Notes: generated by a model from the letters alone, not told the origin. Shown: positions 216 through 49,724, counted from the stretch's first letter. The stretch is DNA of 64,000 bases from Candidatus Magasanikbacteria bacterium RIFCSPHIGHO2_01_FULL_33_34 (GCA_001782825.1 MFPS01000003.1:44353-108352), one strand, 5' to 3'. Made by a program: numbers and translations.

Positions 216-330
216 ATATAATTGGAATTATTATTCGCTCCCTGCCTGCCGGTAGGCAGGATTCTCGCTTTGGCTCCGAGGATGATGCTTATTGTAGCAT
301 CAAATCCGCTCATAATAATTCCAATTATAT
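216..330 (+). repeat. Nested-palindrome intergenic repeat, short variant with an extra inserted hairpin (copy a)
   Basis: The outer stem is ataattggaattattatt / aataataattccaattat. The core is gattctcgctttggctccgagg plus the hairpin gatgct-tattgt-agcatc. An inserted hairpin cctgcc...ggcagg lies at 241-260. Confidence 0.8.
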
Positions 331-365
331 TTAATATTACACATAGTTTAAATAGTTTATTATAT

Positions 366-773
366 ATGGCAGACAAATGTATTTTTTGTGGGATAGTAGG
401 GGGTGAAATTCCAAATCATACAGTATATGAGGATAGTATGGTTTTGGCTTTTTTGGATATATTTCCTCATGCCAAAGGTCATACAGTGGTGATACCAAAG
501 GATCATTTTGAATCTCTGTGGGATATGGACACAGACACATTTCAGTCAATTTTGGCTGGGGTACGCGCTACTGCTGGTCGTGTACAAGCTAGACTCAAGC
601 CGGATGGTATGAATATAGGTATCAATAATGGTAAAAGTGCAGGTCAAGTTGTACCGCATGTACATTGGCATATCATTCCGCGTTGGGAGGGGGATGGTGG
701 CGGTAGTATGCATAGTATTATTAAAAATCCAGGAGATAAAAGTGTTGATGAAATAGCAAAATTATTTAAATAA
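366..773 (+). CDS. HIT-family (histidine triad) nucleotide hydrolase
   Basis: MADKCIFCGIVGGEIP...HVHWHIIPR is the HIT motif. The ATG at 366 is the first start after the repeat, so the longer ORF from 222 is a read-through of the repeat. Confidence 0.85.
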   Translation: MADKCIFCGIVGGEIPNHTVYEDSMVLAFLDIFPHAKGHTVVIPKDHFESLWDMDTDTFQSILAGVRATAGRVQARLKPDGMNIGINNGKSAGQVVPHVHWHIIPRWEGDGGGSMHSIIKNPGDKSVDEIAKLFK

Positions 774-787
774 TATAAAGATATAAA

Positions 788-925
788 ATATAATAGCGTT
801 ATTTATACTTTTAATCATGACCGTATCAATTTGTTTATTTATTTTTACTCCCTGCCTGCCGGCAGACAGGATTCTCGCCTGCGGGCTCCGAGGTGTCGCC
901 TGTTGTGGCAACAAATCCGTAAAAA
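788..925 (+). repeat. Nested-palindrome intergenic repeat, long-type 5' module plus core with inserted hairpin (copy b)
   Basis: The 5' module is ataatagcgttatttatactttt... The core is ctccctgcctgccggcagacaggattctcgcctgcgggctccgagg plus the hairpin gtcgcc-tgttgt-ggcaac, then aaatccgtaaaaa. Confidence 0.75.
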
Positions 926-997
926 GAATACTTACCAAATAAATTAATAAAAAATCAAAACAAATATGTTTAGGTGTTTAAATATTTAAATGTTTAT

Positions 998-1999
998 ATG
1001 CAAATATTAGTATGTGGTGGTGCTGGTTTTATGGGCTCGCACTTTATAAAATATATATTAGAAAAATATCCAGATTACATGCTGGTAAATTTTGATAAAC
1101 TCACTTATGCGGGCAATTTGGAAAATTTGAAAGAAGTAGAAAATAATAAAAGATATAAATTTGTAAAAGGGGATATTTGTGATGCATCTGAAGTTGATAG
1201 AGTAGTCAGAGAAAATAAAATTGATACAATAGTAAATTATGCAGCAGAGACCCATGTTGATCGATCGGTTATGGACCCGTCTGCATTTTTGAAGACTAAT
1301 ATTTTTGGTTCATATAATTTATTAGAGGCGACAAAAAAATTTGATCTAAAAAAAATGGTTCAAGTTTCAACTGATGAAGTATTTGGAAGTATTGATAGTG
1401 GAAAGTTTCGTGAAGATTCACCATTTGAACCAAATAGTCCATATTCGGCTGCAAAGGCTGGTGGAGATTTGCTTTGCCGTTCGTATTTTGTTACTTTTCA
1501 AACGCCAGTGGTAGTGACACATAGTTGTAATTTTTATGGTTCAAATCAATATCCAGAAAAATTAATACCACTTTTTGTCACAAATTTGTTGGAAGGCAAA
1601 AAAGTACCGGTATATGGTGATGGTAAGCAGGTGCGTGAATGGATATATACGGAAGATCATTGTAATGCAATTGATGTGATTTTACATAAAGCAAAAGCTG
1701 GTAGTGTTTATAATATTGGATCAGGAGATGAAATTGAAAATATAGAAATTACAAAATTAATTTTGGAATATTTGGGTTATGATGAAAAAATGATAGAGTA
1801 TGTAAAAGATAGGCCAGGGCATGATAAACGTTATGCGCTTGATGCCAATAAATTAAAAAATGAATTAGGTTGGGAAGCAAAAGTTAATTTTAGAGATGGG
1901 TTGAAAAAAACCGTTGATTGGTATAGAGAAAATGAAGATTGGTGGAAAAAAATAAAAGATGGCAGTTATTTAGAATATTATAAAAAACAGTATAATTAA
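998..1999 (+). CDS. rfbB: dTDP-glucose 4,6-dehydratase
   Basis: MQILVCGGAGFMGSHF is a Rossmann GxxGxxG motif. YSAAKAGGD is the YxxxK catalytic motif. SDR-extended family features are conserved throughout. Confidence 0.88.
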   Translation: MQILVCGGAGFMGSHFIKYILEKYPDYMLVNFDKLTYAGNLENLKEVENNKRYKFVKGDICDASEVDRVVRENKIDTIVNYAAETHVDRSVMDPSAFLKTNIFGSYNLLEATKKFDLKKMVQVSTDEVFGSIDSGKFREDSPFEPNSPYSAAKAGGDLLCRSYFVTFQTPVVVTHSCNFYGSNQYPEKLIPLFVTNLLEGKKVPVYGDGKQVREWIYTEDHCNAIDVILHKAKAGSVYNIGSGDEIENIEITKLILEYLGYDEKMIEYVKDRPGHDKRYALDANKLKNELGWEAKVNFRDGLKKTVDWYRENEDWWKKIKDGSYLEYYKKQYN

Positions 2000-2001
2000 T
2001 T

Positions 2002-2089
2002 ATTAAAGATTATTATTTACTCATTCTCGCTGTGGCTCCGAGGTGTTTGCCTGTTGTGGCAAACAAATCCGTTCATAATAATCTTTAAT
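2002..2089 (+). repeat. Nested-palindrome intergenic repeat, short variant (copy c)
   Basis: The outer stem is attaaagattattat / ataataatctttaat. The core is ctcattctcgctgtggctccgagg. The hairpin is gtttgcc-tgttgt-ggcaaac. Confidence 0.85.
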
Positions 2090-2119
2090 AATTAATTTTT
2101 ACTATTCATTAATTAAAAT

Positions 2120-2956
2120 ATGAAAATATTAATAATTGGAAAGGGTTTTATTGGAGCTAGGTGTGCTGAAGTTTGGGGTGAGGAAGCTTTTGTTAGTGAC
2201 AAAATAATTGATTCAAAACAAGATGTTTTAGATTTGCTTGTTGAATATAATCCTGATGTAGTGTTGAATGCGGCTGGAGTTAGAGGGAAGCCAAATGTAG
2301 ATTGGTGTGAAACAAATCAAGAGGAGACAATATTGGGCAACACAAAACTCCCAATTATTATTGCCGAAGCTTGTCAAGAAAAAAATATTTATTTATTACA
2401 TATTGGTTCAGGTTGTATATTTTATGGAGAGTCTCCAGATCCAAAAGGTTGGAAGGAGTCAGATTTTGGCAATCCTATTCCAGTCTATTCAAGGTCTAAG
2501 TGGGCAGCAGATTTGGTACTTTCAACTTTGCCAAATGTTGGTATTGCTCGTATTCGTATGCCGATTGATTATATACCTTCACCAACTAATATGATTGATA
2601 AATTAGCGACTTTCCCAAAAGTGATTGATGTGGAAAATTCTGTTACTATTGTTGAAGATATGATTGATGTTTTTTATAAATTAATGGAAAAAAGAGCAGA
2701 AGGAATATTTCATGTTACAAATCCTGGTACTTTGAAACACAGAGAAATTATTGCATTGTATGAAGAGTTGGTTGATCCAAATCATAAAAATGAGTGGATA
2801 AGTAATGATGATTTGGTAGCTCAAGGTTTGGCAACAAAAGGTAGGTCAAATAATTTTTTACAATCAGAAAATTTAGAAAAACTTGGAATTAAAATGCGTC
2901 CTATTCATCAAGCAATGCGAGATACAATGGAGAAGTATGCAAAGTTAAAAAAGTAG
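2120..2956 (+). CDS. NAD-dependent sugar epimerase/reductase, RmlD-like (dTDP-4-dehydrorhamnose reductase family)
   Basis: The N-terminus has GKGFIG. NAAGV...VDWCE...LLHIGSGCIFYG parallels RmlD. It sits next to rfbB. Confidence 0.6.
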   Translation: MKILIIGKGFIGARCAEVWGEEAFVSDKIIDSKQDVLDLLVEYNPDVVLNAAGVRGKPNVDWCETNQEETILGNTKLPIIIAEACQEKNIYLLHIGSGCIFYGESPDPKGWKESDFGNPIPVYSRSKWAADLVLSTLPNVGIARIRMPIDYIPSPTNMIDKLATFPKVIDVENSVTIVEDMIDVFYKLMEKRAEGIFHVTNPGTLKHREIIALYEELVDPNHKNEWISNDDLVAQGLATKGRSNNFLQSENLEKLGIKMRPIHQAMRDTMEKYAKLKK

Positions 2957-2968
2957 TTTATAAATATT

Positions 2969-3739
2969 ATGGACTTGAGTATTATTACTGTAACTTGGAA
3001 TTCAGAAAAAAAAATTGAAAATCAGATTTTGTCTGTTATTTCTAGTTGTAGAAATATTACTTTTGAACAAATTATTATTGATAATAATTCACCTGATAAA
3101 ACTGTTGAAGTTGTTAAAAAATTTAATAATGTAAAATTAATTGAAAATAAAGAGAACAAAGGCTTTGGTGCGGCTAATAATCAAGGAATAGAAATTGCAT
3201 CGGGGAGATTTGTTTTATTTCTTAATCCTGATATGAAAGTTGAAGGGGATGCGCTTAATAGAATGGTAGATTATATGGTCCAAAATAGTAATGTTGGCAT
3301 TGCTGGGTGTAAATTATTAAATGAAAATGGGGAATTGAATTTGGCAACAACTCCAAGAAGATTTCCAAAATTGTGGGAACAATTATTTATTGTATTTAAA
3401 ATACATCATTTTTTGCCAAAAATTTTGGATAGATATTTATTTAGAGATTTTAATCCTGAGGTAGAACAAGAAGTAGATTCAGTCCAAGGTTCATTTATGA
3501 TTGTACGTCGTGAATTGATTGATAAACTTGGTTGGGGTTTTGACCCTAGATATTTTATTTGGTTTGAGGATGTAGACTTGTGTCGTGAAGCTAAGAAAAA
3601 TAGATATAAGGTAATGTATACACCAATTGCTACTTGTATTGATTATGCTGGACAAAGTTTTAAAAAAAGGACTACTTGGTGGAAACAAAAACAATACATA
3701 AAAAGTATGTTGAAATATTTTATTAAGTGGGGAGTATAA
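2969..3739 (+). CDS. Glycosyltransferase family 2
   Basis: ITVTWNS...IIIDNNSPD...GFGAANNQG is a GT2 (GT-A fold) signature with DxD. Confidence 0.8.
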   Translation: MDLSIITVTWNSEKKIENQILSVISSCRNITFEQIIIDNNSPDKTVEVVKKFNNVKLIENKENKGFGAANNQGIEIASGRFVLFLNPDMKVEGDALNRMVDYMVQNSNVGIAGCKLLNENGELNLATTPRRFPKLWEQLFIVFKIHHFLPKILDRYLFRDFNPEVEQEVDSVQGSFMIVRRELIDKLGWGFDPRYFIWFEDVDLCREAKKNRYKVMYTPIATCIDYAGQSFKKRTTWWKQKQYIKSMLKYFIKWGV

Positions 3740-3740
3740 T

Positions 3741-4754
3741 ATGGTTAAATTAACAGTGCAATTATTAGTTTGGAATGGAGAAAAATATCTTCCTCATCTT
3801 TTTGAGTCTTTGAGAAAGCAAACAAGTAAAGATTGGCAAATATTTATTTTGGATAATGGTTCTGCTGACAATTCTGTTTCGGTAATAAAAAAAGAATTAG
3901 CTAATTTTTCTATACCTAATTTTTTTGAAGAGGGAGAGTCAAATATTGGTTTTTCGCCTGGACATAATTATATTTATGAACAAACTGATACAGAGTATGT
4001 GTTGATGTTAAATCAAGATTTGTATTTGGAACCAAATTGTATTGAGCGATTAATTTCATTTATGGATAAAAATAGTGAGGTGGCTAGCGTGTCTCCTCGA
4101 CTTATGAAATGGAATATTAATTCACTTGATCACTTTTTTTCTGAGTATGTTGATTCATTGGGTTTAAAAGTGTTTAAAAATAGACGTGCGGTTGATTGGT
4201 ATAATGGTCAGAAGTATGAAAATTTTTTAAATACTAATAAGGATAAAAAAGAAATAGAAGTTTTTGGCGTATCTGGTACATTGCCGATGTTTAGGAGAAG
4301 TAATATAAATAGTATCTTATATGATAATAAATATATATTTGATCCAGATTATAGTTCTTACAAAGAAGATGTAGATTTGGCTTATCGTTTACGATCGGCT
4401 GGATTCAAGTCATATGTAGTTTTGGATACTTGCGCATATCATGATAGAACTAGTGATATAGAAATTACTGTAATAGATAATAAGAAAAAACAACCAGAAC
4501 ATGTAAAATATTATAGTTATAGGAATCATTTGATGACAATATATAAGAATGAATATTTACTAAATTTTATCCTTGATTTTTTTTGGATATTGTGGTATGA
4601 AGTAGGTAAATTTATTTGGTTTTTGTTATTTGATAGAAAGGTTTTAAAAGGTTTGGGAGATATATGGAAATTCAGAAAAAATTTGAAAAGTAGACGAAGA
4701 CAGATAATAAAACAAAGAAAAATAGGATGGTATAAAATTAGAACTTGGTTTTGA
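3741..4754 (+). CDS. Glycosyltransferase family 2
   Basis: QLLVWNGEKYL...ILDNGSADNS is GT2-like. It abuts the upstream GT2 with a 1-nt gap. Confidence 0.75.
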   Translation: MVKLTVQLLVWNGEKYLPHLFESLRKQTSKDWQIFILDNGSADNSVSVIKKELANFSIPNFFEEGESNIGFSPGHNYIYEQTDTEYVLMLNQDLYLEPNCIERLISFMDKNSEVASVSPRLMKWNINSLDHFFSEYVDSLGLKVFKNRRAVDWYNGQKYENFLNTNKDKKEIEVFGVSGTLPMFRRSNINSILYDNKYIFDPDYSSYKEDVDLAYRLRSAGFKSYVVLDTCAYHDRTSDIEITVIDNKKKQPEHVKYYSYRNHLMTIYKNEYLLNFILDFFWILWYEVGKFIWFLLFDRKVLKGLGDIWKFRKNLKSRRRQIIKQRKIGWYKIRTWF

Positions 4755-4770
4755 AAGTATTATTTAGTAT

Positions 4771-5613
4771 ATGAAAGATATTAATATTGTATACGTAAAT
4801 TATTTGATGAAGGAGGATATTTTGAAAGCAGTCAGTAGTGTATTGACTGATATTTTGGGTTGTCCTTATGATGTACAAATTACAGTGGTAGATAATTCTG
4901 AAAATAAGGATGACATAAAGGAAGATTTAGAAAAACTTTATCCTGAAGTAAAATATATTGATGCAGGGGGTAATATTGGTTTTGGAAAGGGTAATAATAA
5001 AGGTTTTAAGTCAACGGAATCAAGATATTATTTTGCTTTAAATAGGGATACTATTATTCCAGATAATTCCAATACTATTGAAAGGATAATTAAGTTTATG
5101 GATAATAATCCAAAGATTGGTTGTATTGGTCCAAAGTTAATTAATATGGATCAGACTCTTCAGGATACATGTTATAGATTTGATTTTAAATCAATTATTG
5201 TTAAACCATTTAAGCAAATTAATTTTGATAAAAAATATAATTGGGTGAAAAAATATACAAATAGATTGTTGATGAAAGATTTTGATCATAATACTACTAG
5301 ACCAGTGGATTGGGTATTGGGGGCGGCTATGGTTGTTAGAAAGGAAGTAGTGGACGAAATAGGTTGGTTTGATGATAGATATTTTATGTATTTGGAAGAT
5401 TGTGATTGGTGTAGAACTATGTGGGATAATGGTTGGCCAGTATATTATGTACATGATATAGTAATACAGCATAGATATGCTCGGGCTTCGGCAGAAATAC
5501 CAGGTGTATTGAAAGCCTTATTAAAAAATAAGTTAGCGCGTATTCATTTGATAAGTTGGTTTAAATATATTTTGAAGTGGCGAGGTAAATTTAAGTATTA
5601 TAAATCTATATAA
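4771..5613 (+). CDS. Glycosyltransferase family 2
   Basis: VVDNSENKDD...GGNIGFGKGNNKG, plus a C-terminal ED..W motif typical of GT2. Confidence 0.7.
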   Translation: MKDINIVYVNYLMKEDILKAVSSVLTDILGCPYDVQITVVDNSENKDDIKEDLEKLYPEVKYIDAGGNIGFGKGNNKGFKSTESRYYFALNRDTIIPDNSNTIERIIKFMDNNPKIGCIGPKLINMDQTLQDTCYRFDFKSIIVKPFKQINFDKKYNWVKKYTNRLLMKDFDHNTTRPVDWVLGAAMVVRKEVVDEIGWFDDRYFMYLEDCDWCRTMWDNGWPVYYVHDIVIQHRYARASAEIPGVLKALLKNKLARIHLISWFKYILKWRGKFKYYKSI

Positions 5614-5627
5614 GTTTTATTTATAAG

Positions 5628-5797
5628 ATATAATAGCATTATTTATACTTTCAACCACGATTGCATTTTTTTCAATTATTTGTTTTTACTCATTCTCGCT
5701 TTGGCTCCGAGGGTGATGCCTGTTGGGGCATCAAATCCGTAAAAACAAATAATTGAAAATAATGCTTAATTATAAATAACGTTTTCAATTTTTACAC
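5628..5797 (+). repeat. Nested-palindrome intergenic repeat, long variant (copy d, reference copy)
   Basis: The 5' module is ataatagcattatttatactttcaaccacgattgcat. P1 is caattatttgtttttac / gtaaaaacaaataattg. The core is ctcattctcgctttggctccgagg. The hairpin is gatgcc-tgttgg-ggcatc. The 3' module is aataatgcttaattataaataacg. Confidence 0.9.
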
Positions 5798-5804
5798 TTT
5801 ATTT

Positions 5805-6905
5805 ATGGAAAAATATCCTAAAATTGCGATAATTTATTTATCATTTGATTCTGAACAATATTTGGATGATGTTGTTTCAGGACTCAAAAAAGTAAGTTAT
5901 CCAAAAGATAAGTTAGAGTTGGTTATAGTGGACAATCCACATCCAAAATATGGCTCATCTGTGAGAGCTATACAAGAAATTATTATGCCACATTCTGGTT
6001 TGGATTTGCCTCACGTTACACTTTTGCCACAAAAAGAAAATTTAGGTTTTGCTGGTGGAAATAATGTTGGTATACAATGGGCATTGGATAATAATTTTGA
6101 TTATATTTATCTTCATAATAATGATGGATTTACTTCAATCAATACTTTTGAATCACTTGCTAAAGTTATGGAGGAAGATAAAACTATAGCAGTGGCTCAA
6201 TCTTTATTACTTCTTCATCCAGATACAGAATATTTAAATAATGCAGGTAATTCTTTTCATTATCTTGGATTTGGTTATTGTGATAAATATAGAGAAAGAG
6301 TGGATGAAGTAAAATTGCCTCCAGTTATGGAGATTTCATATGCTAGTGGCGCTGCTTGTATTGTCAGATCAGATTTGATTAGAAAATACGGAATGCTTGA
6401 TCATGATTTCTTTTTGTATCATGAAGATTTGGAATGGTGTTTTCGTTTTAGGGTAGTTGGATACAAAACAGTTTTGGTGAGAGATTCTGTTTTTTACCAC
6501 AAGTATCAGTTTAGTCGTAGTATTGAAAAGTTTTATTATATGGAGAGAAATCGCTATGGTGTGATGTTGATGTTTTTCAAGCTTCCTTCTTTATTATTAC
6601 TTTTACCTATGGCAATAATTTTAGAGTTTGGTTTGTGGCTTTTTGCTTGGCGTGGTGGTTGGGTAGATAAAAGATTGGAAGTATATAAATATTGGTCAAA
6701 GCCAAATAATTGGAAATTGTGGTTGGGAAAAAGAAAAAATATTCAAACAATGAGAAAAATATCAGACAGAGAACTCTTTAAGTTCAGCGTTCCAGGTATA
6801 TATTTTCAAGAAAAATCTATGGAAAATCCAATTTTGAAATATATTGGAAATCCAGTAATGAAGATATATTATTGGATTGTGGTAAGAGGGATTATTTTTT
6901 GGTAA
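5805..6905 (+). CDS. Glycosyltransferase family 2 with a C-terminal membrane segment
   Basis: IAIIYLSFDSEQYL...VIVDNPHP, plus a hydrophobic C-terminal region. Confidence 0.7.
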   Translation: MEKYPKIAIIYLSFDSEQYLDDVVSGLKKVSYPKDKLELVIVDNPHPKYGSSVRAIQEIIMPHSGLDLPHVTLLPQKENLGFAGGNNVGIQWALDNNFDYIYLHNNDGFTSINTFESLAKVMEEDKTIAVAQSLLLLHPDTEYLNNAGNSFHYLGFGYCDKYRERVDEVKLPPVMEISYASGAACIVRSDLIRKYGMLDHDFFLYHEDLEWCFRFRVVGYKTVLVRDSVFYHKYQFSRSIEKFYYMERNRYGVMLMFFKLPSLLLLLPMAIILEFGLWLFAWRGGWVDKRLEVYKYWSKPNNWKLWLGKRKNIQTMRKISDRELFKFSVPGIYFQEKSMENPILKYIGNPVMKIYYWIVVRGIIFW

Positions 6906-6909
6906 AAAT

Positions 6910-7944
6910 ATGATAACAAAAGCAATACTTACTGGTGGTGGTAGAGCAACTAGGCTTTATCCGATTACATCAACAATTAATAAGCATTTGTTGCCTTTGG
7001 CAAATAAGCCAATGATTTTTCATGCTATTGAAAAAGTGGTTGATGCGGGTATTAAAGAGATATTTATAAATGTAAATCCTGGGGAGGAAGATTTGCAAAA
7101 ACATATTGGTGATGGTGGGCATTGGGGTGTAAAAATAAAGTTTTTTGAGCAAACTGGTGGTCCACAAGGTATTGCCCATGTGGTAAATGAAGCAAAGAAG
7201 TTTATAGGGGATGATCCTTTTGTTTTTTATTTGTCTGATAATATTTTGTTTGGTGATGTAAAGGAAATGATTGAGGAATTTAATAAGGGCGAACATGATT
7301 GTATGTTGGCTTTGTCTGAAGTTCCAGATCCAAATCGTTTTGGTGTACCAGTTTTTGATAATGTTGGTAATTTGATTGATGTGATAGAAAAACCAGAAGT
7401 AGCACCAAATAATTTTGCTGTGACTGGGATATATTTGTATGGTCCAAAAATATTTTTTGAAGCATTTGATAATATAGAAAAAAGCGCAAGAGGCGAGTAT
7501 GAAATATCAAGTATTCATTCTTACTTTTTAAAAAATAACAAAAAAGTTGGTTATAAAGAGATAACTGGTTGGTGGAAGGATACAGGTAAAACAGAAGATC
7601 TTTTGTTGGCAAATAGATTATTACTTGAAAAAACTAATAATATAATTCAAGTTAGTCCGAGTTGTGTTTATGATGATACAGTTGAATTGATTGCACCAGT
7701 TATAATTGGTGAAAATTGTATTTTGAAGAATTGTAAAATAGGACCATATGTTACTATTGGTCAAGGATCAATTATAAAAAATGCTAATATTGAGGATTCA
7801 ATATTGTTATCTAATGTTGAGATTGATTGTCAAATAACAATATCTGATAGTTTGATTGGCAAGGGGGTTAAGTTTTTGAAGAAAGAAGAAAGAAATAAAA
7901 AACATAAGTTGATAGTAGGAGATAAAACTGTTATTGAATTTTAG
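6910..7944 (+). CDS. Glucose-1-phosphate thymidylyltransferase-like sugar nucleotidyltransferase (RmlA-like N-terminus plus C-terminal left-handed beta-helix)
   Basis: LTGGGRATRLYPITSTINKHLLPLANKPMI matches the RmlA G1P-binding N-terminus. The C-terminus has hexapeptide-like repeats. Confidence 0.75.
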   Translation: MITKAILTGGGRATRLYPITSTINKHLLPLANKPMIFHAIEKVVDAGIKEIFINVNPGEEDLQKHIGDGGHWGVKIKFFEQTGGPQGIAHVVNEAKKFIGDDPFVFYLSDNILFGDVKEMIEEFNKGEHDCMLALSEVPDPNRFGVPVFDNVGNLIDVIEKPEVAPNNFAVTGIYLYGPKIFFEAFDNIEKSARGEYEISSIHSYFLKNNKKVGYKEITGWWKDTGKTEDLLLANRLLLEKTNNIIQVSPSCVYDDTVELIAPVIIGENCILKNCKIGPYVTIGQGSIIKNANIEDSILLSNVEIDCQITISDSLIGKGVKFLKKEERNKKHKLIVGDKTVIEF

Positions 7945-7952
7945 TTTATTAG

Positions 7953-9287
7953 TTAATAATTCAATTCATATAACCCAGTTTTATCTCCAACTTTTCCAAA
8001 AAAGTAAATTCTATTTTCTCTTTTATATACACTAGCATTATAAACTTCACCATTATATAGATTTTGATTTACATAATAACCTGGGTTGAATGATTCAATA
8101 CCATGATTGTTAACAATAGCCAAAGCACCGACATCATCAAGTGGAAATACAAATTTAATATTGTCACTAGTTCTATTTAGTAGTGCTGGTTTATCATGTT
8201 CATATATAGACCATAATTCCCATGCAGACCAAGTTAGCCACTCGTTGGTGGATGTATTTCTGTGAAAATTGAGAGTATGAATTGCTTCTTGTTTGTTTTG
8301 TTCTCTGGAAATAATTAATACTTCAGTATCAGTTTGTAATATTGCCCGATAATTATTTATATCAATAATTTTTTTAATTCCTAATGGATTGGGAATAGAA
8401 ATTTTATCTTGTGAATCATTACTATTTTTAACTATTAAGTTATCTTTTTCTAGAATCCAGAATTTTTCTAAGTCATCAATATACCATATTGTCGTAGAAC
8501 TGAGATTAAACATCTGTTCACTGGTATTGGTGGTCAATCTAAAAATTTTGTTATTTTCATCTATAAAAATAGTTGGAATTGGAGAATTTTTTTGCCATTG
8601 ATAATGCAATACTTTTTCTTTGTCGATTAGAACTTCATAATTTGTTATTGTATCTGTATTATCTGCATTTAAAATACTGATTGATGCGATATTTTTTTCA
8701 AATTTAGTAAATAAAATATAATTATTAAATGGCGACCATTCTAATTGATATTTTGTATTTTCTGGTAATTTGAAAAGTGGAGAAAATTCTTCTGATTGTG
8801 AATCAAATAGTTCAATATTTGTAGTTTTGTTTTTTGTAGAAGATAATAAAATAAATCTTCCATCAGTTGATGGTAAAAAAGAATCAATATTATTTTTTGT
8901 ATTGTCTATTGCTGTAGGTAGTGAGTCTTTTAGTAAGTTTATGTTTTTTATGTAAGTTGTTTGTTTACTTTTTACATCTATATTTTTTTCCCATGTTTTA
9001 TATCCGGGTAATGAAATTTTTAGATTATATGTACCGGGGGTTCTGTTGGTTAGTCTGATTGGTATTTTTTTTGTTATCTTTATATCATTTAGATATACTT
9101 CTGCTTCTTTTGGTTTTATATCTATACTAATAACTCCGGTCTCAATAATTTTTTTATTTTCTATATCAAGACGATAACCCATGGAATAAAGTATTAATAA
9201 AGGTGTGATAGTAAAAAAAATCGAAACTAAAAAAAACAAAAAAATACTTCTAAATTTTTTGTCATTGTAGGTATTTGATTGCCTCAT
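7953..9287 (-). CDS. Hypothetical membrane-anchored protein with a PEGA-like domain
   Basis: It has an N-terminal TM helix. IDIKPKEAEVYLNDIKI...PGTYNLKISLPGYKTW resembles a PEGA domain. Confidence 0.5.
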   Translation of the reverse strand: MRQSNTYNDKKFRSIFLFFLVSIFFTITPLLILYSMGYRLDIENKKIIETGVISIDIKPKEAEVYLNDIKITKKIPIRLTNRTPGTYNLKISLPGYKTWEKNIDVKSKQTTYIKNINLLKDSLPTAIDNTKNNIDSFLPSTDGRFILLSSTKNKTTNIELFDSQSEEFSPLFKLPENTKYQLEWSPFNNYILFTKFEKNIASISILNADNTDTITNYEVLIDKEKVLHYQWQKNSPIPTIFIDENNKIFRLTTNTSEQMFNLSSTTIWYIDDLEKFWILEKDNLIVKNSNDSQDKISIPNPLGIKKIIDINNYRAILQTDTEVLIISREQNKQEAIHTLNFHRNTSTNEWLTWSAWELWSIYEHDKPALLNRTSDNIKFVFPLDDVGALAIVNNHGIESFNPGYYVNQNLYNGEVYNASVYKRENRIYFFGKVGDKTGLYELNY

Positions 9288-9355
9288 AATCAGAAATAAT
9301 TTGATTAAATTGCTAAATTTAGCTTAAAATAGCAGTATTGTATTTTTCATTATGT

Positions 9356-9384
9356 TACGCTATAATAGTAGCGTCTTTTTTATA
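9356..9384 (+). other. Hairpin (acgcta-taatag-tagcgt) followed by a T-run, in a divergent intergenic region
   Basis: The sequence shows a 6-bp stem followed by cttttttat. It lies between a minus-strand and a plus-strand gene. Confidence 0.3.
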
Positions 9385-9443
9385 AAAAATCAACTATATT
9401 TGGTATTGATATATTTTTATATAGTTTGTATTAAAATATTAAA

Positions 9444-10754
9444 ATGTTTAATAATACATTTGTTATAAATGGTGGAAAAAAATTAAAAGGAACTATTGAA
9501 ACTAGTTCTGGAAAAAATGCACCGATTGCTTTATTATGTGCATCTGTTTTGGTTAAAAATAAAGTCATTTTAAAAGATATGTCTCATGTTGAGGAGATTG
9601 ACAGGATGATTGAGGTTTTGGTCAGTATAGGTGTGGACATCAAATGGCTGGATAAGACTTCATTGTATATTGATAGCTCAAAGGATTTAACAATGGATAA
9701 AATCAATAAAGAAGCTTGCGCAAGTACTAGAGTATCTCTTTTGTTATTAGGCGCTTTAGCTTCAAGAGAAAAAGATTATAAATTGTATAAAACTGGCGGT
9801 TGCAAATTGGGGGAGAGAACTATTAGGCCACATCTCTATGCACTTGAAAAATTTGGTGTAAGAGTTGAGTCTAAGTCAAAATATTATGAAGTAAAAAATT
9901 CATCACTTCAAGCACAAGATATAGTAATGTATGAATCAGGGGATACTGCAACTGAGAATGCTATTATGGCTGCTATTTTTGCACCGGGTGTTTCTACTAT
10001 TAAGTTTGCATCAGCCAATTATATGGTTCAGGATTTGTGTTATTTTTTGAATACTGCTGGCGCAAAGATTGAGGGGATTGGCACAACAACATTAGTGATC
10101 ACAGGTGTCAAAAAATTACATAAAGTAGATGAATATTTTGTTATTCCAGATCCGGTTGATGCAATGGCATGGATTTCACTTGCTATTACCACAAAATCTT
10201 TGCTTACCATTAAAAATTGCGCATATGATTTTTTGGCTCTTGAATTGGAAAATTTATCAGTGATGGGTCAAAAATATCTTTTATTAAACAAAAGAAAATC
10301 AAAAAGTGGAAATTTTCTTATTTATGATATTAAAATAACCCCATCTGATTTAAAAGCTCTTCCAGATAAATTACATGGACGACCATATCCAGGATTGAAT
10401 ATAGATAATGTACCATTGTTTGTGCCAATACTTACTCAAGCCAAAGGTGAGACTTTGATTCATGATTGGGTTTATGAAAATAGAGCAATTTACTATTTGG
10501 AATTAAAAAAATTAGGTGCAGATATTTTATTACTTGATCCACATAGAGCCTTGATCAAAGGTGTGGTTGAACTCAAAGCAAATGAGGTTGTTTGTCCTCC
10601 AGCTATTAGACCGGGTATGGCTATATTAATCGCTATGTTAGGTGCCAAAGGTAAATCAGTATTGAAAAATGCTTACCCGATTGAAAGAGCTTATGATAAT
10701 TTAGTGGAAAGATTGCGTAGCATAGGGGCTGATATATCCAAAGTTAATAATTAA
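9444..10754 (+). CDS. murA: UDP-N-acetylglucosamine 1-carboxyvinyltransferase
   Basis: It has the EPSP-synthase/MurA fold. FVINGGKKLKGTIETSSGKNAPIALLCASVL is the MurA N-terminal signature. Confidence 0.85.
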   Translation: MFNNTFVINGGKKLKGTIETSSGKNAPIALLCASVLVKNKVILKDMSHVEEIDRMIEVLVSIGVDIKWLDKTSLYIDSSKDLTMDKINKEACASTRVSLLLLGALASREKDYKLYKTGGCKLGERTIRPHLYALEKFGVRVESKSKYYEVKNSSLQAQDIVMYESGDTATENAIMAAIFAPGVSTIKFASANYMVQDLCYFLNTAGAKIEGIGTTTLVITGVKKLHKVDEYFVIPDPVDAMAWISLAITTKSLLTIKNCAYDFLALELENLSVMGQKYLLLNKRKSKSGNFLIYDIKITPSDLKALPDKLHGRPYPGLNIDNVPLFVPILTQAKGETLIHDWVYENRAIYYLELKKLGADILLLDPHRALIKGVVELKANEVVCPPAIRPGMAILIAMLGAKGKSVLKNAYPIERAYDNLVERLRSIGADISKVNN

Positions 10755-10760
10755 TAATAT

Positions 10761-12062
10761 ATGAATTTAGATATTAATAATACTCCAATACAAAAAAATA
10801 AAAAAAATAGATTAATGTATATTTTTTTAAGTTTATTTTTTTTAATAGTAGCTTTTTTTGGTGGGGTTGTGGTGGGGTCAACTTCAATTGTAAAAAATGA
10901 AATATTTAATGATGGTGGTGAGGTGAATATTAGTAAGATAATAAATTTATACAGTAAAACAAGATCTGAAGAAGTTAGTTTTGATCAATATTGGGAAGTT
11001 TGGAATAAGATTAAAAAGGGTTATGTTGATCAGCCAGTAGATGATGTAGATTTGTTTTATGGTTCAATCGTTGGTATGGTGGCATCGCTTGATGATCCAC
11101 ATTCAGTGTATTTTCCACCAAAGGAAGCCAAGGAATTTTCTAAAGATTTGGCTGGAGAGTTTGAGGGGATTGGTGCTGAGATTGGTATTCGTGATAATCA
11201 ACTTACAATTATTGCTCCTTTGCCAGGTTCACCAGCAGAAAACGCTGGTTTGAAGCCCCGTGACAAAGTATTAGCGATAGATGGCGAAGACACATCTTCT
11301 ATGAAACTTGATTTTGCTGTATCAAAAATCAGAGGTCCAAGGAATTCTGAAGTTACTTTAACCATAACTCATAATGGTTATGAAACTGTAGAAGACGTAG
11401 TTATAAAAAGAGACAAAATAAATGTTCCTACTATTGAATCAAAAATTGTAGAAGATACTAATATTGCTTATTTGAGAATAAGTTATTTTAATCAAGATAC
11501 ATGGTTTGATTTTGACAAAGCTGTGCGTGAATTACTCAAAGAATCTCCAAAAGGTTTTGTATTGGATTTGAGGAGTAATCCGGGTGGATTTTTGGAAACT
11601 TCTATTGATGTAGCAAGTGAATGGATAAAACAAGGTATTATTGTTAGTGAAAAAAATGGTAAAGATATTGTATTGGAACACAAGAGTAGAGGGTCTCATA
11701 GATTGGCTGGATTGCCAACTGTGGTTTTGGTTGATGAAGGCACAGCATCAGGATCTGAAATTGTAGCGGGTGCATTACAGGATTATGGTGTTGCCAAGAT
11801 TGTGGGTATGCAAACATATGGCAAAGGATCTGTACAAGATTTTGAAGTATTATTTGATGGTTCAGGCTTAAAATTGACTATAGCAAAATGGTTTACACCA
11901 AAAGATAGGGCGATTGATGGTCAAGGAATTGAGCCAGATATAATTTTAGAAGAAATGTTTTCCCCTATTTATTCAGAAGTTGAAAATGCTGATGGGGAGT
12001 TTGATATAGTTGATGTTGATGATATAGGACTAAAAAAGGCTCTTGATATTTTAGATATTTAG
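10761..12062 (+). CDS. Carboxyl-terminal processing protease (S41, PDZ-containing)
   Basis: It has an N-terminal TM helix, a PDZ region (APLPGSPAENAGL) and the S41 motif LRSNPGGFLE. Confidence 0.8.
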   Translation: MNLDINNTPIQKNKKNRLMYIFLSLFFLIVAFFGGVVVGSTSIVKNEIFNDGGEVNISKIINLYSKTRSEEVSFDQYWEVWNKIKKGYVDQPVDDVDLFYGSIVGMVASLDDPHSVYFPPKEAKEFSKDLAGEFEGIGAEIGIRDNQLTIIAPLPGSPAENAGLKPRDKVLAIDGEDTSSMKLDFAVSKIRGPRNSEVTLTITHNGYETVEDVVIKRDKINVPTIESKIVEDTNIAYLRISYFNQDTWFDFDKAVRELLKESPKGFVLDLRSNPGGFLETSIDVASEWIKQGIIVSEKNGKDIVLEHKSRGSHRLAGLPTVVLVDEGTASGSEIVAGALQDYGVAKIVGMQTYGKGSVQDFEVLFDGSGLKLTIAKWFTPKDRAIDGQGIEPDIILEEMFSPIYSEVENADGEFDIVDVDDIGLKKALDILDI

Positions 12063-12064
12063 TT

Positions 12065-12430
12065 ATGGCAGAGTATTCGGTATCAGGAATTGTCGTAAAA
12101 GGAGATGGGTTAGCTAAAAATTTTGGTTATCCAACTGCGAATTTAGATATAAGTTTGGATAAGTTTGATTTAGCATCTGGTGTATATGCTTGTATTGCAT
12201 ATCTTGAAAACATTCAATATAATGCTGTTGCTATAATTAAAAGGAATGAAAGTAAATTTGAAGTACATTTGATTGGGTACGATGGATTAGATTTTTATAT
12301 GAAACAGGTGTCAATTAATTTACTTAGTAAAGTTAGTGATATTGAAAAGAAAGATGGGCAAGAATTGATTGATAAAATAGAAAGTGATATGAAAAAGGTA
12401 TTTGATTATTTTAGTCGTAAGATACAATAG
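12065..12430 (+). CDS. Riboflavin kinase (monofunctional, RibF C-terminal-domain-like)
   Basis: GIVVKGDGLAKNFGYPTANL and EVHLIGYDGLDFY match the riboflavin kinase domain. Confidence 0.7.
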   Translation: MAEYSVSGIVVKGDGLAKNFGYPTANLDISLDKFDLASGVYACIAYLENIQYNAVAIIKRNESKFEVHLIGYDGLDFYMKQVSINLLSKVSDIEKKDGQELIDKIESDMKKVFDYFSRKIQ

Positions 12431-12575
12431 CATTATTTATACTTTCAACTACGATCGCATTAATTACAATTATTTGTTTTTACTCATTCTCGCTGTGGCT
12501 CTGAGGTGATGCCTGTTGTGGCATCAAATCCGTAAAAACAAATAATTGTAATTAATGCTTTAAATTTTTACATTT
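12421..12575 (+). repeat. Nested-palindrome intergenic repeat, long variant (copy e)
   Basis: The 5' module overlaps the stop codon at 12428-12430. P1, the core ctcattctcgctgtggctctgagg, the hairpin gatgcc-tgttgt-ggcatc and the 3' module are all present. Confidence 0.9.
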
Positions 12576-12594
12576 TAATTTATAAGTAGTAGTT

Positions 12595-13170
12595 ATGTTT
12601 ACAGGAATAATAAAATCTATTGGGGAGATAAATAAAATTAATGAAAAAGAACAAGGAATTGAACTTGTAATTGCTTTTGATGTTAATCAAAGTATTTCAA
12701 TAGGATCGAGTGTATGTATTTGTGGAGTTTGTTTGACTGTTACGGATTTGAAAGATAATCTTTTTAGTTTTGATGTAATGCCTGAGACTATAAGAAAAAC
12801 AACTCTTAATTTTAAACAGATTGGGTCTAAAGTAAATATTGAGATGGTTCTTCGAGTTGGTGATGAACTAGGTGGTCATTTTGTATATGGTCATATTGAT
12901 GGTATTGGTAAGGTTGTGTCAATTAAAAATGAGGGTGATAATAAGCTTGTAGAATTTGAGGTTGATAATGATATTATGAAATATATAGTACCACAAGGAT
13001 CTGTCGCTGTTGATGGTGTAAGTTTGACTGTTGCTAGGCTTGGTAGTAATACTTTTACAGTGTCTTTGATTCCCTTTACGCTTGAGAATACAACATTGGG
13101 AGAGTTGAGAGTGGGAGAAAAAGTAAATATTGAATCAGATATGCTTGCTAAATTTGCTAACAAAAGTTAA
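12595..13170 (+). CDS. ribE: Riboflavin synthase alpha subunit
   Basis: MFTGII... shows two lumazine-binding repeats. Confidence 0.85.
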   Translation: MFTGIIKSIGEINKINEKEQGIELVIAFDVNQSISIGSSVCICGVCLTVTDLKDNLFSFDVMPETIRKTTLNFKQIGSKVNIEMVLRVGDELGGHFVYGHIDGIGKVVSIKNEGDNKLVEFEVDNDIMKYIVPQGSVAVDGVSLTVARLGSNTFTVSLIPFTLENTTLGELRVGEKVNIESDMLAKFANKS

Positions 13171-13212
13171 TTTATAGAATTCACTTCATTAATTATTTAT
13201 AAAATAAAGTTT

Positions 13213-46372: not shown

Positions 46373-46425
46373 ATGGCTTATTTCCTATGACTAGTCAAAA
46401 TACCATTTATTTGGGATTGTGTCAA

Positions 46426-47205
46426 TCAAAAGTCAAAACTGCCGGTCAAATATCCTACGCCAAAAGGGTGTTCATATGTAGAGCTTTCAAAGGAATAGTC
46501 AGTCTCTTTTAAAACGCCAAGTAGAATTAAAATTGATCTATAACCACATTCTTCAGCATTTTTGAGTGATTCACTTGAATCAAGATCTAAAATACTACCA
46601 ATTAATTTTTCTTTGATCAGATAAATCAATTTTTCATCAAAATTTTCTTTTTTACTCTTTTTTTTGGGTAATTTGTGAGATAAATCACCTGAAGCAATGA
46701 CAGCAATACGCCTGTGATCTTCTTCGATTACATCTTTAAGTATTTCACCAAAATGTATATGTTCCATAGCATTTCTGTGACTATATCCTAGGGGTAAAAT
46801 TTGTACATCTTTGAGATGATTTGTCAGGTAAAATAAAGGAACAGTAGCGCCATGATCAAGTTTTTCTTGACTACCAAGCTGTAAATTTATTTTTTTTGTT
46901 TTGCAGGCTTGGCTTAGTTTTGCGGCAAAGTCTGGAGAACCTTTCCAATCTCGTACAGTAGACAAATCACCAAAATTATCATAGGCAGATACAAAGTGCG
47001 TGTTAGCATTGACTGAAAAGGATTCTTTGTAGAGACTACTATGAGGTGAAATTACTATAATTAATTGCGCTTTGGATACATAAATTTCTTTTTCAAGAGA
47101 CTCCAAAGCTTCTTTTGTTTTGTTTATAAGATCTATTTTTTCCTTTCCAATATTGGGTATAAGTAGTGGTGGGTGGGGAGTGATTCCGGCAAAAACTAAT
47201 GACAT
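46426..47205 (-). CDS. LigB/DODA-family (class III extradiol dioxygenase / Memo-like) protein
   Basis: ISPHSS, LDHGATVPL and ASGDLSH are motifs conserved in the family. Confidence 0.6.
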   Translation of the reverse strand: MSLVFAGITPHPPLLIPNIGKEKIDLINKTKEALESLEKEIYVSKAQLIIVISPHSSLYKESFSVNANTHFVSAYDNFGDLSTVRDWKGSPDFAAKLSQACKTKKINLQLGSQEKLDHGATVPLFYLTNHLKDVQILPLGYSHRNAMEHIHFGEILKDVIEEDHRRIAVIASGDLSHKLPKKKSKKENFDEKLIYLIKEKLIGSILDLDSSESLKNAEECGYRSILILLGVLKETDYSFESSTYEHPFGVGYLTGSFDF

Positions 47206-47213
47206 AATATTAT

Positions 47214-49457
47214 TTATAAGTTAGACATAGCCCAATTTGTCAGTTGATCTGGAGCCAAAAAACGATTGGAATGATCTGGGTTTCCCATGGTAATGATAAT
47301 AAATTTCTTTGCGTCTTTATTTCTTTGGACTAGCATAGCTAATCCATCACCAGCTTCATCTAGGTAACCAGTTTTACTGTTGATTATATTATAGGCTGTA
47401 TGGGTTTGTTGTACAAGCTGATTGGTGTGATCATCATAATGGTGAGGCAATCCGTCAATATCTTTCAATTCATCATATTCATAAGATTTGAGCCCAAGTA
47501 AGGTATTAACTTCATTATTGTTTATAGCTTTTTTGTATATTGTCAAGTATTCTCTGGCAGTTGATTTTGTGCCTAAATTTTCACCAGTTACTGAATCAAA
47601 TATTGTATTTTTTAGACCTAATTCTTTGGCAGTTGTATTCATACGAGAGATAAATTTGGATTCATCTTCTTCAACCGAGTCTACCAACATTCGCATAGCT
47701 GTATTTAATGATGAAATTAGTCCAGCATAGAGCAAATCTCTATTGAACAGTTTTTCACCTTCTACGATTCTAAAAGTATGATAAGTTGCTTTGTGGTCAG
47801 TTGGATCATAGGTTTTACTTCCATTTAAGTTTATACCTTCTTTCATAAGTTGATAAGCTGTCATAACTTTGGCAAATGAAGCAATTGGCCGTATATCATC
47901 TATATTTTTTCCAGATATTATTTCGCCTGTAACATAGTCAGCAATTAAATAGGTGTTGATATTGGTATCAAATGTATTACCAATGTATTTTGTTTCTGAT
48001 GCTGGAGTTTTGATCATTTTTTCGTTTACTGGTTCTACATTAATACTTGGGGCAATTGTAGTATTATCAGCAATTTGGATTTGGCGTTTCAAGTACAAAG
48101 GTTGACCGGTAGGGTGATTAAGTCCAGTAAATTCATCTACCCAAATAATATTGTTCCAGTCAAAACCAAGTCCATTAAAAACATCTTCACTGGCAATATG
48201 GCGTTTTTTGCTATTTTCTACTACATAAATTTTGTTGCTTCCAGTTATTCCAAATAATGTTCCATCTCTGAGTTTAAGTGGTTCGCCAGGTGTAAAGTTT
48301 GCCAGTTCAATTGCGCTAGTATTTTCAATATCAATATTTGGATAATTTATTTTGGCTATAGCTTCATCGGTTATAGGGTAGTATTTGCCGTCATTGATAT
48401 AGTATAGTTGTTTATTTTCTTTGATTTTTAAGATTCTACCAAGAGGGGTAGAAGTGCCTTCAATTATTGTATTGCCTAGAGAAAATGTAGATATATCAGA
48501 ACTATTTACTTCAATAATTTCATCAGGGTGATAACCTAAACTTTTTACTACATTGTAACTAGCAAATGGTCGAATAGAGTCATAATCAAGTAAATAATAA
48601 TCATTGCTATTTTTGAGGATTGAGTAATTTGGTAAAGAAATTTCTGTACCTAGTTCATAGTTGTTTAATTCAACTTCTGGTACGGGCAAAATATATTTTG
48701 GATCAAAACGGGTAATTAGCGCAGACATATTTTTGAATGGTCGTTTGATTCCGTCTTGTATTAGATAAATGGTTGAGCTATTTAAGCCTTTGACTAGACT
48801 ACCATTTGGGTAAACTTGATCAAACCATTTTTGCCAAAGATTCCAAAAATTTTTGTTGCCATGAACATGAGGGGTATAGGTGTAGAGAAAAGCTGTGGCT
48901 AAAGTGGCTGGTCTGATTGTCATGCCATCAATAGAATAAGTTTGTCCAGTGCGTTTTATCCAAGGTTGTATAAGTAGATTGTCATAATACCAACGGATAA
49001 TGGCGGCAGCACTATCAACTTGTATACCAAAGCCTTTGTGTTTTTGTAGAGCTGGATCATTCATACTACAACTATCACAAATGCCATAACCAGTAGCCCA
49101 GTCTAATTGTTTTTGGGTAGGGGAATTGGTTGTAATAAGGCTTTGTTCTTTTTGTAATTTTACAAGCAAGTATTTTGGATTGATTTTGTGATCAATAGCA
49201 GCTCGATAAATAATATCAGAAGCAGTTCTATTGACACCATTTATGTCTGGTCCGCGATAATCCACTAGGTAGCTGTTGTAATCTTTGAGAAAGGCTTGAA
49301 TATCTTCGCGGGTCATGCTTTTTGAGTTTTGGATTTCTTCATCACTGATTATATAATTTGGGTCAAAATTTTCTTCTACAGCCGAGACAAACAGGTGTGG
49401 CATTAGAATGCCACAGATAACAAAAATAGAGAATAATTTCCAAGTAAATTTATACAT
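47214..49457 (-). CDS. Secreted protein with a C-terminal D-alanyl-D-alanine carboxypeptidase (PBP5/S11-like) domain and a large N-terminal extension
   Basis: It has a signal peptide. The C-terminal domain has the SxxK (ASFAK), SxN (SLN) and KTG (SKTGY) motifs. Confidence 0.65.
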   Translation of the reverse strand: MYKFTWKLFSIFVICGILMPHLFVSAVEENFDPNYIISDEEIQNSKSMTREDIQAFLKDYNSYLVDYRGPDINGVNRTASDIIYRAAIDHKINPKYLLVKLQKEQSLITTNSPTQKQLDWATGYGICDSCSMNDPALQKHKGFGIQVDSAAAIIRWYYDNLLIQPWIKRTGQTYSIDGMTIRPATLATAFLYTYTPHVHGNKNFWNLWQKWFDQVYPNGSLVKGLNSSTIYLIQDGIKRPFKNMSALITRFDPKYILPVPEVELNNYELGTEISLPNYSILKNSNDYYLLDYDSIRPFASYNVVKSLGYHPDEIIEVNSSDISTFSLGNTIIEGTSTPLGRILKIKENKQLYYINDGKYYPITDEAIAKINYPNIDIENTSAIELANFTPGEPLKLRDGTLFGITGSNKIYVVENSKKRHIASEDVFNGLGFDWNNIIWVDEFTGLNHPTGQPLYLKRQIQIADNTTIAPSINVEPVNEKMIKTPASETKYIGNTFDTNINTYLIADYVTGEIISGKNIDDIRPIASFAKVMTAYQLMKEGINLNGSKTYDPTDHKATYHTFRIVEGEKLFNRDLLYAGLISSLNTAMRMLVDSVEEDESKFISRMNTTAKELGLKNTIFDSVTGENLGTKSTAREYLTIYKKAINNNEVNTLLGLKSYEYDELKDIDGLPHHYDDHTNQLVQQTHTAYNIINSKTGYLDEAGDGLAMLVQRNKDAKKFIIITMGNPDHSNRFLAPDQLTNWAMSNL

Positions 49458-49532
49458 ATAGTTTAATACGTTTTTTATATTGTAGCATAGTTTTTGTGAG
49501 AAAAAAAGCTGTTTTTTTATTATGTATTTATA

Positions 49533-49724
49533 GATTATATTAGTATTGTCTATATTTTTAATTATGATTGTACTAATTTTAATTATTTGTTTTTACTCTC
49601 TGCCTGTCGGCAGGCAGAATTATCGTTTTGGCTCCGAGGTGATTGCCTGTTGTGGCAATCAAATCCGTAAAAATAAATAATTGGAACTAATGCTTAATTA
49701 TAAATAATGTTTTTATTTTTTACA
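49533..49724 (+). repeat. Nested-palindrome intergenic repeat, long variant with an inserted hairpin (copy h)
   Basis: A divergent 5' module precedes P1. The inserted hairpin is ctgcctg-tcgg-caggcag. The core is cgttttggctccgagg. The hairpin is gattgcc-tgttgt-ggcaatc. The 3' module follows. Confidence 0.85.

Follow-up and report, generated by a model that had tools for sequence, protein, structure and literature searches.

A family of miniature inverted-repeat elements lying in one orientation on a Candidatus Magasanikbacteria chromosome

Short intergenic repeats, all lying in the same orientation, were found in a 64,000-nt stretch (hereafter the window) of the chromosome of a Candidatus Magasanikbacteria bacterium, a member of the candidate phyla radiation (CPR)/Patescibacteria. 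The window has a G+C content of 32%. On the evidence of their sequences, these repeats are recent intergenic insertions with target-site duplications, i.e. miniature inverted-repeat transposable elements (MITEs). We think it likely that they form a lineage-specific MITE family, which would be moved in trans by a DDE-type transposase and would take its orientation from the replication fork at insertion. The genes of the window are of the housekeeping type (CTP synthase, DnaG, a sigma factor, AlaRS, ribosomal proteins, ATP synthase and cell-envelope glycosyltransferases), and identical proteins were also found in Candidatus Magasanikbacteria metagenome-assembled genomes (MAGs) from Rifle groundwater, including GCA_001784315.1.

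Ten copies in one orientation

Eight related elements (copies a to h) were detected in the window by repeat finding and alignment. The core pattern GCTCYGAGGN{6,11}YKRTTGKRGN{4,9}RATCCG matched at 273, 885, 2035, 5704, 12498, 16062, 16230 and 49631, with all eight matches on the plus strand and none on the minus strand (0 expected by chance). A covariance model (R1) was built from the eight window copies and run over both strands of the whole window with filters off. It recovered the same eight copies at 57–109 bits and no others, the minus strand giving only weak mirror images of them. These searches confirmed an initial annotation of eight same-orientation copies, and the gene map placed them, as had been proposed, between plus-strand genes (a–e) or between minus-strand genes (f, g and h). 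That annotation had ended at 49724, one base beyond the right terminus of copy h (49723).

By way of the first and last proteins of the window, the sample was widened by 10 kb on either side to 84 kb of the ~1.17-Mb genome, all within one replichore. The 10 kb upstream of the window (L070) contained two further copies, i and j, both on the plus strand, and no copy was found in the downstream 10 kb. In total, 10 of 10 copies had one orientation over 84 kb, and nine of the ten crowded into 26 kb. Five copies (a–e) lie between plus-strand genes, four between minus-strand genes and one (i) in a divergent spacer. Six copies are sense to the gene that follows them and four run antisense to the operon around them, indicating that orientation is independent of flanking transcription, as was claimed at the outset. 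If orientation were free, the probability that all copies are alike would be 1/128 for eight copies, in agreement with the figure first given, and 1/512 for ten.

GC skew was above zero in every 4-kb window (+0.04 to +0.36) and was still positive across the added flanks. Among the 65 genes of the window, 53 (82%) lie on the plus strand and 12 on the minus strand. Together, the skew and the gene bias indicated that the plus strand was the leading strand of one replichore. Under the 82% gene-strand bias, ten of ten copies on one strand has P ~ 0.13.

Five independent assemblies at strain level (L041, L044, L071, L081 and L082) showed the same copies in the same orientation, indicating that the pattern was not an assembly artefact. 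Neither an inversion of the core at sites a–g nor a presence/absence polymorphism was found among these five.

Anatomy and folding of the repeat

The element is a near full-length palindrome enclosing a conserved, asymmetric, GC-rich core of 50–72 nt. Its outer stem (P1) is AT-rich and 20–32 bp long; the sequence of P1 varies by copy, and the two arms within a copy are almost perfectly complementary. The core consists, in order, of CTC, an optional perfect palindrome CCTGCCTGCCGGYAGGCAGG (present in a, b, h and j), ATTCTCGC, a short loop, GGCTCCGAGG, a hairpin (P3) with a TGTTG-type loop, and AAATCCG. Folded as a single strand, the element comprises P1, the optional GC palindrome, a short CTCG/CGAG helix (P2) and the inner hairpin P3.

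The copies were of two forms. The long form (b, d, e, g, h and j; 155–194 bp) has GTAA...TTAC termini and carries U and D ends, which add ~40–60 conserved bases per side and are imperfect inverted copies of one another that differ by an indel. The U-to-D order was identical in all six long copies. The short form (a, c, f and i; 97–125 bp) consists of the hairpin and the core, and its ends are less clear-cut. TTAC precedes the core in most copies. The inner junctions of long copies read TTAC, core, GTAA (e.g. 5663–5694 with 5734–5765), with the outer tetranucleotides facing each other. Such junctions may resemble two abutted transposon ends parted by the core, or may simply follow from the palindrome.

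Pairing was well preserved among 11 distinct copies, with 96.9% of cells paired and 17 of 30 pairs changed on both sides (11 in P1, and six of the seven pairs of P3). None of 500 shuffles matched the observed values, and slid controls paired at 32–48%. P2 (CTCG/CGAG) was invariant save for two G-T pairs, which are possible on the plus strand only. Between the plus and minus strands folded as RNA, the energy difference ranged from -5.5 to +2.8 kcal/mol and did not consistently favour either strand, so that folding energies do not decide the strand of action. The full copy d folded as DNA had a z of -8.0.

Both ends of the long form contained conserved, inward-facing -35/-10-like boxes with a 17-nt spacing (TTGTAA…TATACT and TTGTAA…TATAAT). 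A generic promoter scan of the AT-rich window gave matches at chance level (102 hexamer matches vs 104.7 expected). Speculatively, promoter-like boxes at both ends could restore downstream transcription in either direction of an operon.

Insertion of the core into pre-existing palindromes was considered and rejected; arm and U-end sequence was never found without the core in the window. Opposite outer orientations of c and f despite the same core strand were also considered, and were dropped as the flank similarities were too weak.

A 20-nt perfect palindrome, CCTGCCTGCCGGCAGGCAGG, is the optional module of copies a, b, h and j (241–260, 851–870 and 49599–49618 of the window, and L070:1678–1697). 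The era-rnt spacer of a relative (L068:10987–11006, also L069:2051–2070) contains it too, there standing alone inside an inverted repeat of quite another kind. From these occurrences it looks like an independent small palindromic unit common to the clade.

Target-site duplications and empty sites

The 9-mers abutting the two termini were identical in copies g (AATTAATTT), j (ATTTTATAT) and f (TATTTTAGA) and in a copy, k, of a relative (AATTGATTT; see below). Inexact matches were found in i (8/9), d and e (7/9 each) and h (6/9). In an empirical null drawn from AT-rich 9-mers of the window at the same spacings, the probability was 0.00012 for 9/9, 0.002 for at least 8 and 0.015 for at least 7. 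Eight of the ten copies had their own distinct flanking 9-mers. Since the sequence differs from copy to copy, the 9-bp repeats are duplicated target DNA and not part of the element. Copy-specific 9-bp direct repeats are the signature of staggered double-strand cleavage of the target by a classical transposase; a 9-bp duplication would fit IS4, IS5/IS903, IS1 or IS256 as the parent family. The adjacent copies f and g have different duplications (TATTTTAGA vs AATTAATTT), indicating that they were separate insertions and did not arise by tandem duplication.

Empty sites were found in relatives. In GCA_975904245.1 (L079 and L066), which is perfectly syntenic with 83–85% protein identity, the corresponding spacers are 18 nt (j), 6 nt (b), 3 nt (c), 2 nt (d) and 11 nt (f/g) long, and R1 detected no copy in these syntenic loci. 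A second relative (L068, ~80% identity) was without d and f/g, and its d spacer is ~15 nt.

The elements lie wholly in intergenic spacers and have no coding capacity. They were thus found to be short (<~300 bp) and gene-less, with terminal inverted repeats, a duplication of fixed length and variable sequence, dispersed copies, and empty sites in relatives, which are the features by which MITEs are recognized.

Inversion of the core in relatives

A complete copy of the long form, k, flanked by a duplication of its own (AATTGATTT), was found upstream of era in a relative whose Era is 91% identical (L065); the same site is empty in the window. This locus is syntenic with the window and reads the opposite way, in agreement with its GC skew. 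In k, the ends have changed places with respect to the core. The sequence 3' of the core is U-type, scoring 19–26 in alignments with U ends and 6–16 with D ends. The locus of another relative (L083, Era 88% identical) starts inside an element at the same site; the U end and right arm of this element can be aligned to their counterparts in k. The arm in L083 abuts GAGAATGAG (the reverse complement of the core 5' end) and that of k abuts AAATCCG. These orthologous elements carry opposite core orientations, indicating that the core had flipped between its arms.

In the frame of the window, both relatives keep the U-to-D order of the six long copies; L083 has the core on the usual strand, and k has it inverted. 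A core on the opposite strand at a syntenic locus of a relative indicated that polarity was not absolute across the clade. If anything, it is the outer ends that keep their orientation more consistently, and the core less so.

Other palindromic elements were seen at these loci. Where the window has f and g, the Era-RNase T spacer of relatives (L065:4573–4725 and L068:10850–11044) contains another long inverted repeat, TTGAYACYTAACCACCTGACCACCT ... AGGTGATTAGGTGGTAAGGTGGT. Yet another palindromic repeat lies in the HIT-rmlB spacer of L080 (~300–385). From such sequences, the spacers of this clade seem to have been colonized repeatedly by different hairpin elements. A 31-nt GC-rich near-perfect palindrome, GGGTCTGTCCCGACTCAGTCGGGACAGACCC (L065:3677–3707), stands just upstream of the era start codon beside k and is absent there in the window and in L083.

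Origin of the uniform orientation

Asymmetry of the target was ruled out as a cause, since 712 T-rich and 681 A-rich 9-mers were counted on the plus strand of intergenic DNA. Transcription does not explain the orientation, since copies between plus-strand genes, between minus-strand genes and in the divergent spacer are all alike. Selection on the direction of a transposase gene cannot explain it, since the element is gene-less.

Among 57,515 insertion sequence (IS) copies surveyed, orientation was found to be biased relative to local GC skew in a family-specific way (Gomez et al. 2014, PMC3971601). The biased families included IS200, IS605, IS607 and IS110, and also ISL3, IS3, IS30 and others, with DDE families among them (PMC3971601). 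This bias was argued to arise at insertion and not by selection afterwards; it was significant mostly in Firmicutes, in fewer families in Proteobacteria and Actinobacteria, and in none in the other phyla tested (PMC3971601).

The initial annotation had read the uniform orientation as a replication-strand polarity characteristic of elements acting on single-stranded DNA. The first part found support, as the shared plus strand is the leading strand, and also the lagging-strand template. The second part did not: polarity is not diagnostic of single-strand elements, because DDE families are biased too. All 10 copies lie on the G-rich strand of the one replichore sampled, and the core of one relative is on the other strand. 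Our best guess, drawn from the analysis of this single replichore, is that the uniform orientation would have been caused by replication-coupled insertion. It may also be that the elements share the strand bias of the genes, e.g. as small transcription units.

For a MITE family of this kind, the following course is proposed, of which the insertions and the core inversion are shown by the sequences and the steps between them are inferred. The copies entered AT-rich intergenic spacers, many of them inside operons, duplicating 9 bp of the target. A DDE-type transposase encoded elsewhere in the genome would mobilize them in trans, and their orientation would be set at insertion by coupling of the transposition complex to the replication fork. 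Over evolutionary time, the core can invert between the arms, as the orthologous elements upstream of era show. Speculatively, the core might be kept as a requirement for propagation, or as an RNA or single-strand DNA structure that renders insertions in operons tolerable.

Several points weigh against this course. No convincing flanking duplication was found for copies a, b and c. The 84 kb examined contained no transposase gene (Y1/HUH, RAYT or other), and no recombinase or integrase gene, and a full-length parent IS with the same ends was not found within this part of the ~1.17-Mb genome. Conservation is highest in the internal core, whereas the arms of the two forms are unlike, which would be unusual if only the termini mattered. 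The core of k lies on the plus strand of its locus, which is the lagging strand in the frame of the window. With a single replichore sampled, the orientation may reflect a regional effect, or selection for the strand on which the core lies, in place of replication coupling.

A rather unlikely alternative is that the core is a strand-specific module, working on the lagging-strand template as single-stranded DNA in folded form, or else as RNA of the plus strand, with its orientation enforced by fork-coupled insertion or by occasional flipping plus selection. If this were true, a replication-polar structured element would sit on a classical MITE in an ultra-small CPR genome; one would then expect its orientation to switch at the origin and terminus, and the core to be subject to selection in its own right.

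It is unlikely that the core functions as a structured RNA (either a small RNA gene or a leader or intercistronic element), carried by or domesticated from the repeat and lying on the leading strand as most genes do. Unpaired core nucleotides are conserved beside the covarying P3, the G-U pairs of P2 are confined to the plus strand, promoter-like boxes at the 17-nt spacing face inwards at both ends of the long form, and the gene bias by itself would give ten of ten at P ~ 0.13, all of which would suit an RNA. However, close relatives lack the elements in the orthologous spacers, four of ten copies run antisense to the host operon, the two strands fold as RNA with equal stability, and promoter-like hexamers occur at the frequency expected by chance (102 vs 104.7). 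Against Rfam 15, the whole window gave 0 matches at gathering thresholds; a search of 1–17000, which covers seven of the eight window copies, relaxed to E up to 5, gave only chance matches to microRNA/snoRNA families. In one relative the core is inverted, and the element is still retained there.

The initial annotation had pointed to REP/RAYT or IS200/IS605-type elements. A single-strand HUH/Y1-type element would be either an IS200/IS605-derived palindrome-associated element or a REP/REPIN moved by RAYT, and the folded plus strand on the lagging-strand template would be its substrate. Elements of IS200/IS605 lack terminal inverted repeats and do not duplicate their target; they insert 3' of a fixed tetra- or pentanucleotide, and their active strand is the lagging-strand template (PMC5027513); REPINs are doublets of short REPs served by RAYT (PMC3337134). 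The uniform orientation on the lagging-strand-template strand, the covarying hairpin stems with conserved neighbouring nucleotides, the G-T pairs of P2 tolerated on the plus strand only and the TTAC before the core in most copies agree with such an element. But the long copies have terminal inverted repeats, and 9-bp duplications specific to each copy flank the long copies, f and i. The left flanks are different AT-rich 9-mers (AATTAATTT, ATTTTATAT, TATTTTAGA, AATTGATTT and others) with no fixed tetra- or pentanucleotide. In place of two inverted REPs, the unit has one long hairpin that encloses a single asymmetric core, with neither a GTAG-type REP head nor a doublet of short REPs, and no Y1 transposase gene was found in the 84 kb. 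The inverted termini and target duplications contradict membership in IS200/IS605 or REP/RAYT, and we regard an HUH/Y1-type origin as very unlikely.

A sampling or regional accident without any mechanism is highly improbable: although only 84 kb of one replichore was sampled and nine of the ten copies lie within 26 kb of it, ten insertions, eight of them with their own differing flanking 9-mers, would agree with P = 1/512, and the U-to-D order is constant in the six long copies and, in the frame of the window, in the insertion of the relatives.

There is very little to be said for the core as an invertible segment (a flip-flop or phase switch between inverted arms) whose common orientation reflects a population state and not a property of insertion. 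The insertion upstream of era shared by L065 and L083, with opposite cores (GAGAATGAG vs AAATCCG at the arm), would suit it, but the five strain-level assemblies have the same orientation at all sites a–g, no recombinase gene lies nearby, and a single inversion between lineages ~10% apart in protein sequence points to a rare event. A 50–72-bp segment between 27–32-bp arms is also shorter than known invertase substrates.

Individual copies and their surroundings

All of the following copies are on the plus strand. Copy a (211–335, short form; R1 90.6 bits) has a perfect 24-bp outer stem and a core at 238–308 that includes the optional palindrome CCTGCCTGCCGGTAGGCAGG; it lies 31 nt upstream of a HIT gene and has no clear flanking duplication (best 7/8). 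Copy b (783–945, long form, decayed; 57.3 bits), upstream of a dTDP-glucose dehydratase gene, has an intact U-type left end, a core at 848–919 with the optional palindrome, and a degenerate right arm. Contig MFQM01000049.1 at NCBI stops ~173 nt past the HIT gene, at about window position 946, i.e. at copy b, and L083 begins inside an element. As short-read assemblies break at or inside the repeats, MAGs of this lineage likely under-report them.

Copy c (1994–2097, short form; 96 bits) has a 23-bp outer stem and a core at 2020–2071. The stop codon of its upstream gene, which is rmlB-like, comes from the left arm (1994–1999), and the spacer is 3 nt in the relative L079. Read from the alignment, the C-terminus of the rmlB-like protein is KQYN* vs KQYV* in that relative. 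Copy d (5623–5795, long form, 173 bp; 109 bits) consists of a U end, a 27-bp arm, the core (5689–5739), the other arm and a D end, and its flanking 9-mers are GTTTTATTT (5614–5622) and ACTTTATTT (5796–5804), matching at 7/9; it is the copy that was folded as DNA (z = -8.0). Copy e (12417–12571, long form, 155 bp; 97.4 bits; core 12483–12532) is located between the riboflavin kinase and riboflavin synthase genes and is flanked by ATTTTAGTC and ATTTTAATT (7/9).

Copies f and g are bracketed by the RNase T gene (15244–15996) and the Era gene (16346–17194), both on the minus strand. Copy f (16012–16125, short form; 93.3 bits; core 16047–16098) begins 16 nt from the start codon of the RNase T gene, and its exact 9-bp direct repeat TATTTTAGA is at 16003–16011 and 16126–16134. 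Copy g (16149–16321, long form, 173 bp; 103 bits; core 16215–16265), between RNase T and Era, has the exact 9-bp direct repeat AATTAATTT at 16140–16148 and 16322–16330. Copy h (49530–49723, long form, 194 bp; 79 bits) has a core at 49596–49667 with the optional palindrome and flanking 9-mers matching at 6/9, and stands between two minus-strand genes, one PBP-like (47214–49457) and the other at 49794–50387.

In the upstream locus L070, copy i (short form, flanking 9-mers 8/9) is located between dnaB on the minus strand and a glycosyltransferase gene on the plus strand. Copy j (long form, with the optional palindrome and the exact 9-bp repeat ATTTTATAT) is located between ybaB and dnaB, both on the minus strand.

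Two fragments upstream of the ATP synthase operon are probably the remains of decayed copies, both on the plus strand. One is an exact 18-nt match to the start of a D end (AATGCTTAATTATAAATA, 54297–54314), which overlaps the stop codon of a TatD gene; this stop codon (54303–54305), like that at copy c, is thus supplied to a host gene by element DNA. The other, just upstream of the operon, is a 21-nt exact match to the left arm of f (ATTAATAATTAGAGATTATTA, 54394–54414).

Elsewhere in the window, a 647-aa protein with TrwB/TraG-type coupling-protein and HerA-like ATPase domains is encoded at 26008–27951, amid housekeeping genes, and synteny there is kept in strain-level assemblies (L041–L043).

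Distribution and implications

Core patterns were scanned against 185,579 species genomes, JGI metagenomes and viral contigs, and only chance matches in unrelated, mostly GC-rich coding DNA were obtained (40 matches in genome contigs, 19 in metagenome contigs and 2 in viral contigs). These patterns are strict, such that a relative's copy with GGCTGCGAGG and a TATTAT loop would be missed, and the absence elsewhere therefore holds for the exact form alone. BLAST of copy d against plasmid and phage collections gave one 48-nt AT-rich chance match and nothing else. A full-text literature search joining CPR with miniature inverted-repeat elements turned up no work on CPR MITEs.

The repeats described here are a MITE family in a CPR bacterium, and its strand uniformity and conserved invertible core are unusual traits. 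Mobile DNA of the CPR is poorly described, and this family has recently filled spacers in essential operons (dnaB-ybaB, era-rnt, and rml with glycosyltransferase genes). Should its orientation turn out to follow the replichores, the family would provide a clean case of replication-coupled insertion in a host outside the phyla with reported IS bias. With a conserved invertible core, inward promoter-like ends and a very stable hairpin, it is also a candidate for effects on operon expression. For annotation, it matters that short-read assemblies are interrupted by the repeats, as in the contigs MFQM01000049 and L083.

Comparison with known systems

The family would resemble the orientation-biased IS families (PMC3971601) in a replication-related bias, which extends to families that transpose as double-stranded DNA with target duplications. 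Those are autonomous and are oriented by their transposase gene, whereas the element here is gene-less and its host is a CPR bacterium.

With IS200/IS605 derivatives and REP/REPIN-RAYT systems, it has in common intergenic hairpin repeats with covarying stems and, for IS200/IS605, a bias to the lagging-strand template, which the present copies show in the one replichore sampled. Those systems differ in lacking inverted termini and duplications, in using a fixed target, in needing Y1 or RAYT and, for REPs, in a length of 20–40 nt with a conserved head; none of this was seen here in the 84 kb examined.

Integron attC sites are likewise structured and strand-specific, have variable stems, and lie in one orientation between genes of either direction. 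No attC boxes (R''/L''...L'/R', RYYYAAC/GTTRRRY) were visible in the aligned copies, and no integrase gene was found in the 84 kb. Moreover, attC sites are without copy-specific flanking duplications, and the present elements neighbour essential housekeeping operons, whose synteny is kept in relatives without the elements.

The closest parallels are with other bacterial MITEs, namely Correia/NEMIS of Neisseria, RUP of Streptococcus pneumoniae and ERIC/IRU. These are also 100–200 bp long without an open reading frame, have inverted ends able to form a long hairpin and a target-site duplication, and occur in many intergenic or intra-operon copies whose presence varies among close relatives. Correia and RUP duplicate TA, whereas the present family duplicates 9 bp. 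Unlike Correia, RUP and ERIC, it has a palindrome of near full length around a conserved, structured and asymmetric core that is able to invert, and all of its copies seen in this genome share one orientation.

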